Assembly (NCBI GenBank): GCA_009923495.1
Contig: RFTJ01000001.1
Location: forward strand, 12,879 to 76,878
Direction: 5' to 3'
Length of the DNA stretch: 64,000 nt
Origin: Actinomycetota bacterium
GTDB taxonomy: Bacteria; Actinomycetota; Actinomycetes; S36-B12; UBA5976
In this document: positions 13,278 to 13,403 of the stretch, piece after piece
Layout: every line of letters begins with the position of its first letter
Position numbering within the stretch: the first letter of the stretch is position 1
Translations under genes and position numbers: made by a program
Notes under the pieces: generated by a model
Seen by the model: only the letters and a program-made list of their open reading frames with translations
Databases searched by the model: none
Told to the model about the DNA's origin: nothing

Positions 13278-13403
13278 ATGAAACGAACATTCAGGGTTTT
13301 AATAGCACTTAGTTTGGCGCTTGCGCTCAGTGGCACCGGGGCATCGACAGTCAGTGCTGGTCCCAGAATCACACCTTTGAACGTTAACCTAAAGTGCTGC
13401 TAA
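13278..13403 (+). CDS. Small secreted pro-peptide (41 aa), candidate signalling peptide precursor
   Basis: Below the track's size cutoff. ATG 13278 is preceded by AAGGA 8 nt upstream. Translation is MKRTFRVLIALSLALALSGTGASTVSAGPRITPLNVNLKCC, then TAA. It has a positively charged n-region, a 13-aa hydrophobic core and a VSA|G signal-peptidase I site, which would leave the 14-aa tail GPRITPLNVNLKCC. Confidence 0.6.
   Translation: MKRTFRVLIALSLALALSGTGASTVSAGPRITPLNVNLKCC

Follow-up and report, generated by a model that had tools for sequence, protein, structure and literature searches.

A predicted secreted Cys-Cys peptide and its divergently encoded HTH-TPR regulator as a candidate RRNPP-like signalling cassette in an uncultured freshwater actinobacterium

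Does a 41-codon open reading frame (ORF) that ends in two cysteine codons encode a genuine peptide, and if so, what might the peptide do? The question is raised by a locus in a 64-kb stretch of an actinobacterial metagenome-assembled genome (MAG; assembly GCA_009923495.1, contig RFTJ01000001.1, positions 12,879 to 76,878), referred to here as the window. The original prediction, made from the DNA letters of the window, described an uncalled secreted propeptide with a C-terminal Cys-Cys pair and implied a likeness to RNPP-type pheromones. The ORF is divergent from a gene for a regulator with a helix-turn-helix (HTH) domain and tetratricopeptide repeats (TPR), and a gene for a protein of about 60 amino acids (aa) follows it; this cassette lies in a chromosomal core region. 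Our data suggest that the peptide and the regulator form an RRNPP-like propeptide/receptor signalling pair in an uncultured freshwater actinobacterium, a reading to which we assign a probability of roughly 0.5.

The ATG, the TAA, the 41 codons and the translation of the predicted ORF were all confirmed. The translation, MKRTFRVLIALSLALALSGTGASTVSAGPRITPLNVNLKCC, can be divided into a predicted signal peptide, MKRTFRVLIALSLALALSGTGASTVSA, and a predicted mature part, GPRITPLNVNLKCC. Of the window's 507 six-frame ORFs (30-70 aa), three passed a crude heuristic filter for signal peptides, which asked for Lys/Arg in the n-region, a hydrophobic, charge-free run of 12 residues and small residues at -3 and -1; the peptide ORF was the sole convincing case. 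A Cys-Cys terminus occurred in only two of the same 507. Most orthologues carry GGAGG at the distance from the start codon where the window has a Shine-Dalgarno (SD)-like AAGGA, as seen in the spacer alignment. Pfam, NCBIfam and PADLOC held no family for the peptide, and a known riboswitch or small RNA at positions 13000-13800 was rejected after an Rfam search of this region matched no family. The description of the gene as uncalled was accurate for the NCBI MAG record GCA_009927365.1 ('Actinobacteria bacterium'), which annotates just the downstream 72-aa ORF (EBS36_00110) and omits the peptide gene, but not for 12 metagenome contigs of the same species, on which the exact peptide is called as a gene.

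A homologue search with the peptide alone returned only the peptide itself, and pattern scans of genomes and metagenomes yielded only two and seven loci, respectively. Relatives were instead reached through orthologues of the neighbouring regulator that were placed on contigs. Nine further lineages, whose regulators are 38-52% identical to that of the window, hold a 41-codon ORF at the same position and divergent from the regulator (loci L010, L014, L015, L018, L019, L020, L021-23 and L030, plus a start-less lineage comprising L012 and L024-26). The orthologues begin with Lys/Arg, keep a hydrophobic core with an uncharged stretch of at least 12 residues (by the heuristic) and a small -3/-1 site, and end in a 14-residue tail with Cys-Cys directly before the stop. 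Their predicted cleavage sites read ASA, ATA, ANA, VNA, TGA or VSA, with one TSV. At -1, Ala is found in 10 of 11 sequences, and all 11 have Ala, Val, Ser or Thr at -3. The predicted mature length is constant at 14 across the freshwater clade; the signal-peptide layout and the 14-residue product first proposed for the window alone are thus kept among its orthologues.

Ten aligned 41-codon sequences, window included, differed pairwise by 0.454, 0.371 and 0.611 on average at the first, second and third codon positions, respectively, which is the kind of codon-position bias that the original prediction had named as a check. In the same alignment, the Cys codons swap between TGC and TGT and the stop codons between TAA and TGA. 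Because third positions vary most and the Cys and stop codons change synonymously, the peptide ORF is, as judged from these alignments, a translated gene under purifying selection. A chance ORF was excluded by the orthologues at the same position together with the codon-position pattern. Nine near-identical contigs of the same species showed 0 differences in the ORF and, without a single-nucleotide polymorphism there, are silent on selection.

Conservation of the ORF in relatives, on which the prediction had staked itself, was observed with two exceptions. What looked like a frameshift in L012 and L024-26 proved to be a lost start codon (AGG in place of ATG, in four independent assemblies), with the remaining frame and the SD intact (ORF at about 3780-3905 in L024). 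This lineage keeps the regulator and the mature sequence, SPIVKYSVPGGKCC, and may represent natural signal-null, receptor-positive strains. On the short contig L016, a 1-nucleotide (nt) indel is located in a homopolymer directly 5' of KCC.

The mature peptide is conserved at both ends and variable between them. A conserved head, [S/G/A/D]-P-x-[V/I]-[K/T], is followed by a six-residue core (peptide codons 33-38) without conservation and by an invariant tail, [K/N/E]-C-C. L010 and L021 share 95% of the nucleotides of their regulator genes (92% of those at third positions), and their peptide genes match at only 6 of 18 nt in the core, against 13 of 15 in the head and 12 of 12 in the tail; L021 and L024, with regulator genes 90% identical, match at all 18 core nt. 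Since core matching runs counter to regulator identity in these comparisons, the alignments indicate that the core is a hypervariable, recombining (mosaic) cassette. Known pheromone loci show the same kind of allelic pattern. The pattern fits a recognition or specificity element and is at odds with a leader ORF and with an effector that is purely chemical. Among L010, L021 and L024, the DNA 3' of the peptide gene was also far more diverged than the regulator, which suggests a recombination boundary at the operator.

The peptide gene is paired with the regulator in every freshwater locus with enough upstream DNA (10 lineages) and in four distant loci (from Cellulomonas fimi, Actinotalea and MAGs), where regulators of 28-30% identity also adjoin a signal-peptide ORF with Cys-Cys. 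In L011, where the two genes are divergent, predicted cleavage after ...SFA would leave SVITPSIFKGGPTNCC, ending in ...PTNCC. In Cellulomonas fimi (L027; CP002666, 2711-2854; WP_013771519.1), cleavage after ...ALA would leave DDAVVTPFSGGATGCCRAAV, ending in ...ATGCCRAAV. L029, a cluster representative from Actinotalea solisilvae, ends in ...SGVGSTGCCKV, and L031 carries ...VVTLGTGCCKTVQ, ending in ...GTGCCKTVQ. The Cys-Cys end, which the prediction had singled out as unusual, is therefore the most conserved feature of the peptide and persists even at this distance. The distant peptides are annotated merely as hypothetical proteins (WP_013771519.1, WP_267907590.1). The elements [V/I][V/I]-[T/K]-P and G-x-T-x-CC recur across clades, so that the peptides themselves look homologous. 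Collectively, the comparison of loci indicates that the peptide-regulator pairing is ancient. Two other distant regulators (L017 and L032) had no CC peptide in the available flank, which is short.

The arrangement of the pair differs among clades. In C. fimi, L029 and L031, the peptide ORF is co-directional with and upstream of the regulator; in these Cellulomonas-type loci, 2-4 further codons follow the CC, the downstream gene is the regulator and the 60-aa gene is missing. The pair lies between holA and rpsT in C. fimi and L029, and holA adjoins comEC in L029. In the window, the comEC-holA-rpsT-lepA block (43770-49474) is intact and carries no HTH-TPR/peptide insert, and holA-rpsT-lepA is located about 32 kb from the cassette. 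Because the block lacks the insert, the window cassette is either a relocated form of the Cellulomonas-type cassette or its paralogue. Genes outside the three-gene core vary by locus (a CotH/lamin-tail-domain protein, glycosyltransferases, a glutaredoxin, a hexapeptide transferase), and the unit can therefore be defined as regulator, operator, peptide gene and 60-aa gene.

The spacer between the two divergent genes, 87 nt from the regulator start to the peptide gene, was strikingly conserved, although the proteins are just 38-56% identical. Ahead of the SD and the ATG, the consensus TATTCTCAC-N5-GTAAGttTTCTTAC-N4/5-GTAAGAAAT is kept in 10 lineages. The exact palindrome within the spacer occurs once in the window, and in related loci it is confined to the regulator-peptide spacer in all but two (L015 has a second copy, and the spacer copy in L018 has one mismatch). 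A spacer of this kind (Table 1) is what one would expect of two divergent promoters that are autoregulated through binding of an HTH dimer.

The regulator itself is predicted to be cytoplasmic. An N-terminal XRE-type HTH domain was found at residues 13-69 (HTH_31, 8.1e-11; HTH_3, PF01381, 4.5e-8), and the Pfam TPR_14 match reached 3.9e-5, with 24.4 bits against a cut-off of 23.5. An AlphaFold2 (AF2) model (predicted local distance difference test [pLDDT], 88) is all-helical, with about 24 helices and an uninterrupted helical-repeat array, a TPR superhelix, at residues 81-427. Residues invariant in the regulator include R157, R165, D194, R236, D274, D297 and E306. Searches of Pfam, NCBIfam and PADLOC gave generic HTH/TPR matches only and no curated family. 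In Foldseek, ComR, PlcR and Rgg2 were among the top matches of the model (E-values, 1.6e-4 to 9e-4; template modelling [TM] scores, 0.26-0.48). Most PDB matches, by profile as well as by fold, were to TPR proteins. A hidden Markov model (HMM) scan of 1.84 billion representative proteins returned 26 at E<=1e-30 and 3,224 at E<=1e-10; few proteins belong to the close regulator family, and many to the broader HTH-TPR class of about 440 aa.

The third gene begins 40 nt after the peptide stop and encodes MQFRIIDPCGRVI...DPFLEVQ... in the window. It is probably co-transcribed with the peptide gene; no terminator-like site was found between the two. The spacer separating them is not conserved and has no conserved hairpin, and a hairpin 3' of the 60-aa gene was not significant (z = -0.8). 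The family motifs read YRIIDPxxRVI...AWL...RKDPFLELQ...GRxWVTL, with R-I-I-x-P, W-L and D-x-F-L-x-x-Q invariant or nearly so in the alignment. NCBI places the start at GTG 13405, whereas the orthologues support the ATG about 13 codons further in (Table 1), which suggests that the NCBI start is probably too far upstream. The gene follows the peptide gene in L010, L014, L015, L018-L024 and L030, and the protein has 25 relatives, all of them freshwater actinobacterial metagenome proteins. It matched no Pfam, NCBIfam or PADLOC family and has no predicted membrane segment; its model has a beta-beta-alpha-beta-beta order (pLDDT, 77), with which a fold search of the PDB found nothing at an E-value below 0.1.

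Table 1. Features of the cassette, in window coordinates.
Feature	Position	Strand	Basis or remark
Peptide gene, 41 codons	13278-13403	+	ATG 13278, TAA 13401-13403
Predicted Sec signal peptide, 27 aa, ends VSA	13278-13358	+	sequence and heuristic
Predicted mature 14-mer, GPRITPLNVNLKCC	13359-13400	+	sequence
Cys-Cys codons	13395-13400	+	stop at 13401-13403
Shine-Dalgarno-like AAGGA	13267-13271	+	6 nt 5' of ATG
Operator-like region in the 87-nt divergent spacer	13216-13265	.	conserved alignment, repeats
Perfect palindrome GTAAGATTTCTTAC (GTAAG-N4-CTTAC)	13240-13253	.	repeats and exact search
Half-site TTTCTTAC	13216-13223		related to palindrome
Half-site TATTCTCT	13226-13233		related to palindrome
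Half-site GTAAAAT	13259-13265		related to palindrome
Promoter-like TTGTAA-16-TAAAAT	13238-13265		overlapped by operator-like region
Regulator gene, 441 aa, predicted cytoplasmic, divergent from peptide gene	11865-13190	-	HTH and TPR matches, AF2 model
Conserved gene for protein of about 59 aa, predicted cytoplasmic	13444-13623	+	orthologue alignments

How might these parts work together? In the proposed mechanism, the Sec pathway would export the 41-aa precursor, and signal peptidase I would cut after VSA to free the 14-residue peptide; further trimming after the conserved Lys/Thr could yield a 9-mer. The peptide would accumulate outside, re-enter the cell and bind the TPR domain of the divergently encoded regulator, altering its occupancy of the GTAAG-N4-CTTAC operator array. 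As this array is placed on both divergent promoters, it would control the regulator gene as well as the peptide/60-aa operon, with the 60-aa protein as the output. Outside the cell, the terminal cysteines might pair in a disulfide, vicinal or intermolecular, by which the C-terminus is protected or activity is gated, and they might be reduced after uptake. Actinobacteria oxidise exported cysteines via MdbA (PMC9974433). Because the cysteines are conserved in all alleles and clades, and because the regulator orthologues have no invariant Cys or His to partner the peptide, the pair most likely serves a chemistry that all alleles share, and a role in specificity is unlikely. Each step from export and cleavage to uptake and binding, like the part played by the cysteines, is one that we infer.

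Membership of the RRNPP systems has been tied to a propeptide gene of 10-100 aa directly adjoining the receptor gene, and a published five-point signature comprises a small propeptide, a Sec tag, a receptor of 250-500 aa, TPRs and adjacency (PMC10075063). The cassette formally displays all five points, the Sec tag by heuristic only; it has the adjacency and the receptor size with TPRs of RRNPP systems, and the N-terminal XRE-type HTH of the PlcR, NprR, PrgX, Rgg and AimR subfamilies. It falls outside the described range of RRNPP systems, which is Firmicutes and their mobile elements, as the host is an actinobacterial MAG (Actinobacteria, Actinomycetota or Actinomycetales bacterium in NCBI). 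The RNPP-type reading implied at the outset is thus supported by the HTH-TPR pairing, the conserved operator and the hypervariable core, while a signalling function is still something we infer.

Several observations weigh against a signalling pair. LGN, IFIT and MalT matched the regulator model in Foldseek at the same level as ComR, PlcR and Rgg2, and the regulator-family profile matched the TPR region of NprR (4gpk) with an E-value of 2.9e-7 versus 6e-8 for LGN, an unrelated TPR protein; such model and profile matches, which eukaryotic TPR proteins equal, do not demonstrate common descent with the Firmicute RRNPP receptors. The putative -35 and -10 elements flank the palindrome, whose position suits simple repression as well as it suits pheromone-controlled activation. 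Receptor substitutions showed no clear co-variation with the peptide alleles of L010, L021 and L024; the L010 regulator has 14 scattered lineage-specific substitutions and differs from that of L021 at 24 positions. No oligopeptide importer or permease was found in the window. The start codon lost in one lineage and the 1-nt frameshift on one contig mean that the peptide is dispensable in some strains. Density signalling is also hard to picture for dilute planktonic cells. Finally, we know of no characterised RRNPP pheromone with an invariant Cys-Cys; PMC9765709 makes no mention of cysteine, and the literature search found neither an actinobacterial RRNPP-like system nor a Cys-Cys pheromone.

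The invariant cysteines also provide the starting point for the alternative that survives best, which we nonetheless regard as unlikely. The product could be an exported effector, an extracellular thiol peptide for redox buffering, metal binding (e.g., Cu(I)) or covalent envelope attachment, with the HTH-TPR neighbour regulating its expression and sensing something else. Cys-Cys is the sole absolutely conserved feature of the mature peptide across very distant clades, which argues for shared chemistry rather than a specificity code. The oxidation of exported cysteines through MdbA and the lack of an invariant Cys or His in the regulator agree with such an effector as well. Pure chemistry, however, does not need a hypervariable mosaic core beside conserved flanks, and it leaves the strict and ancient pairing with a TPR regulator, in divergent as well as co-directional layouts, unexplained; moreover, no metal or redox genes are conserved nearby.

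An uncleaved membrane anchor appears improbable. The short product with its single hydrophobic helix might be a small membrane protein with an external Cys-Cys tail, or a type-I-toxin-like peptide under XRE-type repressor control, and both the operator position, which allows tight repression, and the tolerated loss of the start codon in one lineage are compatible with this. Yet the small -3/-1 residues and the preceding helix-breaking Gly/Pro/Ser are kept in 10 of 11 sequences, as in signal peptidase I substrates, and the tail is hydrophilic and of fixed length.

The bacteriocin or RiPP (ribosomally synthesised and post-translationally modified peptide) precursor raised in the original prediction fared poorly, and we consider it quite improbable. 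A small secreted Cys-containing peptide with a hypervariable core, followed by a conserved small gene without known function, could be such a precursor with the 60-aa protein as its immunity or maturation partner. No modifying enzyme, dedicated exporter or transporter, or membrane immunity protein is conserved beside the peptide gene, however; the flanking genes contain no RiPP enzyme domains and vary by locus. The 60-aa protein, without a predicted membrane segment and missing from the Cellulomonas-type loci, does not suit that partnership, and a bacteriocin of 14 residues with a single possible disulfide would be out of the ordinary.

Attenuation by a cysteine-sensing leader ORF, in which ribosome stalling at the terminal Cys codons would tune the 60-aa gene, has its appeal in the consecutive Cys codons right before the stop and just 5' of a co-transcribed gene, and polycysteine short-ORF attenuators exist in Actinobacteria according to a preprint (bioRxiv 10.1101/834739), but it is very improbable given a conserved signal peptide, an AxA site and a fixed 14-residue tail that a leader would not need, an SD rather than a leaderless start, the unconserved and hairpin-free spacer to the next gene, a downstream gene unrelated to cysteine metabolism, and the Cellulomonas-type CC, which is trailed by further codons and then the regulator.

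If the cassette is an RRNPP-like pair, its closest counterpart in architecture, by analogy, would be NprR-NprX of the Bacillus cereus group, with a logic also resembling PlcR-PapR, ComR-ComS and AimR-AimP-AimX. NprR has a similar size (about 420-440 aa) and the same order of an XRE-type HTH and a long TPR array, and the neighbouring propeptide of about 40 aa carries a Sec signal peptide, as is predicted for ours. The cassette differs in its actinobacterial rather than Firmicute host, in its divergent genes (those of NprR-NprX are co-directional), in the invariant Cys-Cys end and in the conserved 60-aa gene after the peptide gene. PlcR-PapR, ComR-ComS and Rgg-SHP also combine HTH+TPR factors that bind palindromic boxes with a small peptide encoded next door, the active peptide being the C-terminal part of the precursor. 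Their receptors are shorter, at 280-320 aa with 5-6 TPRs compared with 441 aa in the cassette, and the SHP and ComS peptides are exported by PptAB, without the Sec signal that is predicted for ours. To our knowledge, none of PapR, ComS and SHP has a conserved Cys-Cys.

The arbitrium system of Bacillus phages (AimR-AimP-AimX) follows a comparable three-part logic: its receptor combines HTH and TPR, its propeptide of about 40 aa leaves the cell by Sec and has the signal at its C-terminus, and a small output gene lies downstream. It differs in belonging to phages, with another gene order, a 6-aa cysteine-free signal and an unrelated output. The propeptide of Rap-Phr in Bacillus is exported by Sec, the route predicted for ours, and a pro-region separates its signal peptidase site from the active peptide at the C-terminus; the loci are polymorphic and allele-like. 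Rap receptors, in contrast, lack an HTH and act on proteins, and any sequence relation is limited to the signal peptide; the match of our peptide N-terminus to the Phr_nterm model (E-value of about 0.01, below the cut-off) reflects signal-peptide likeness only. The mycobacterial polycysteine attenuators resemble the cassette in being actinobacterial short ORFs with consecutive Cys codons 5' of another gene, and differ, according to the same preprint (bioRxiv 10.1101/834739), in being leaderless, a few codons long with Cys codons in the majority, without a signal peptide and followed by cysteine-related operons.

Peptide signals read by TPR receptors have been held to be a Firmicute trait, with Actinobacteria credited with small molecules such as gamma-butyrolactones (PMC10075063). 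An actinobacterial receptor/propeptide/operator cassette would, if true, widen this Firmicute-only picture. What sets the cassette apart from the known systems is its phylum, the invariant Cys-Cys, the operator shared by divergent genes and the extra 60-aa gene. A more far-reaching proposal, which we advance only tentatively, is that the cassette represents the first family of actinobacterial peptide pheromones with cytoplasmic TPR receptors, old enough to extend from abundant, streamlined freshwater plankton to cultivable Cellulomonas and Actinotalea, with a redox-switchable Cys-Cys signal, pherotypes defined by the core, and start-less, signal-null strains that keep the receptor. The signal would then be a disulfide while outside the cell and a thiol once taken up. 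Both the mosaic core and the invariant Cys-Cys point to chemistry and allele dynamics undescribed for known pheromones. The uncultured freshwater lineages that carry the cassette have few regulators, and one may ask what benefit planktonic cells would draw from signalling of this type. The distant version in C. fimi ATCC 484 (WP_013771519.1), which is cultured and genetically tractable, makes the idea directly testable. NCBI-style annotation drops such genes.

Other genes in the window were observed alongside the cassette. Convergent to it is a gene for a 631-aa exported protein with lamin-tail and CotH kinase domains (13669-15564, minus strand), and a lamin-tail/CotH protein gene also adjoins the cassette in L021-23 and L030. 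A gene for a protein with collagen triple-helix repeats (20503-21795, minus strand) lies 5 kb beyond the CotH gene; no link between the peptide and the CotH or collagen-repeat genes was found. A homologue of the AI-2E family transporters (PF01594) is encoded at 34151-35308 on the plus strand, and its tie to signalling is by name only. The start of a cytochrome P450 gene (16858-17994, plus strand) is ambiguous: its longest ORF (TTG, 378 aa) overlaps a GH125 gene by 25 nt, and the protein is called as 347 or 365 aa in other assemblies.

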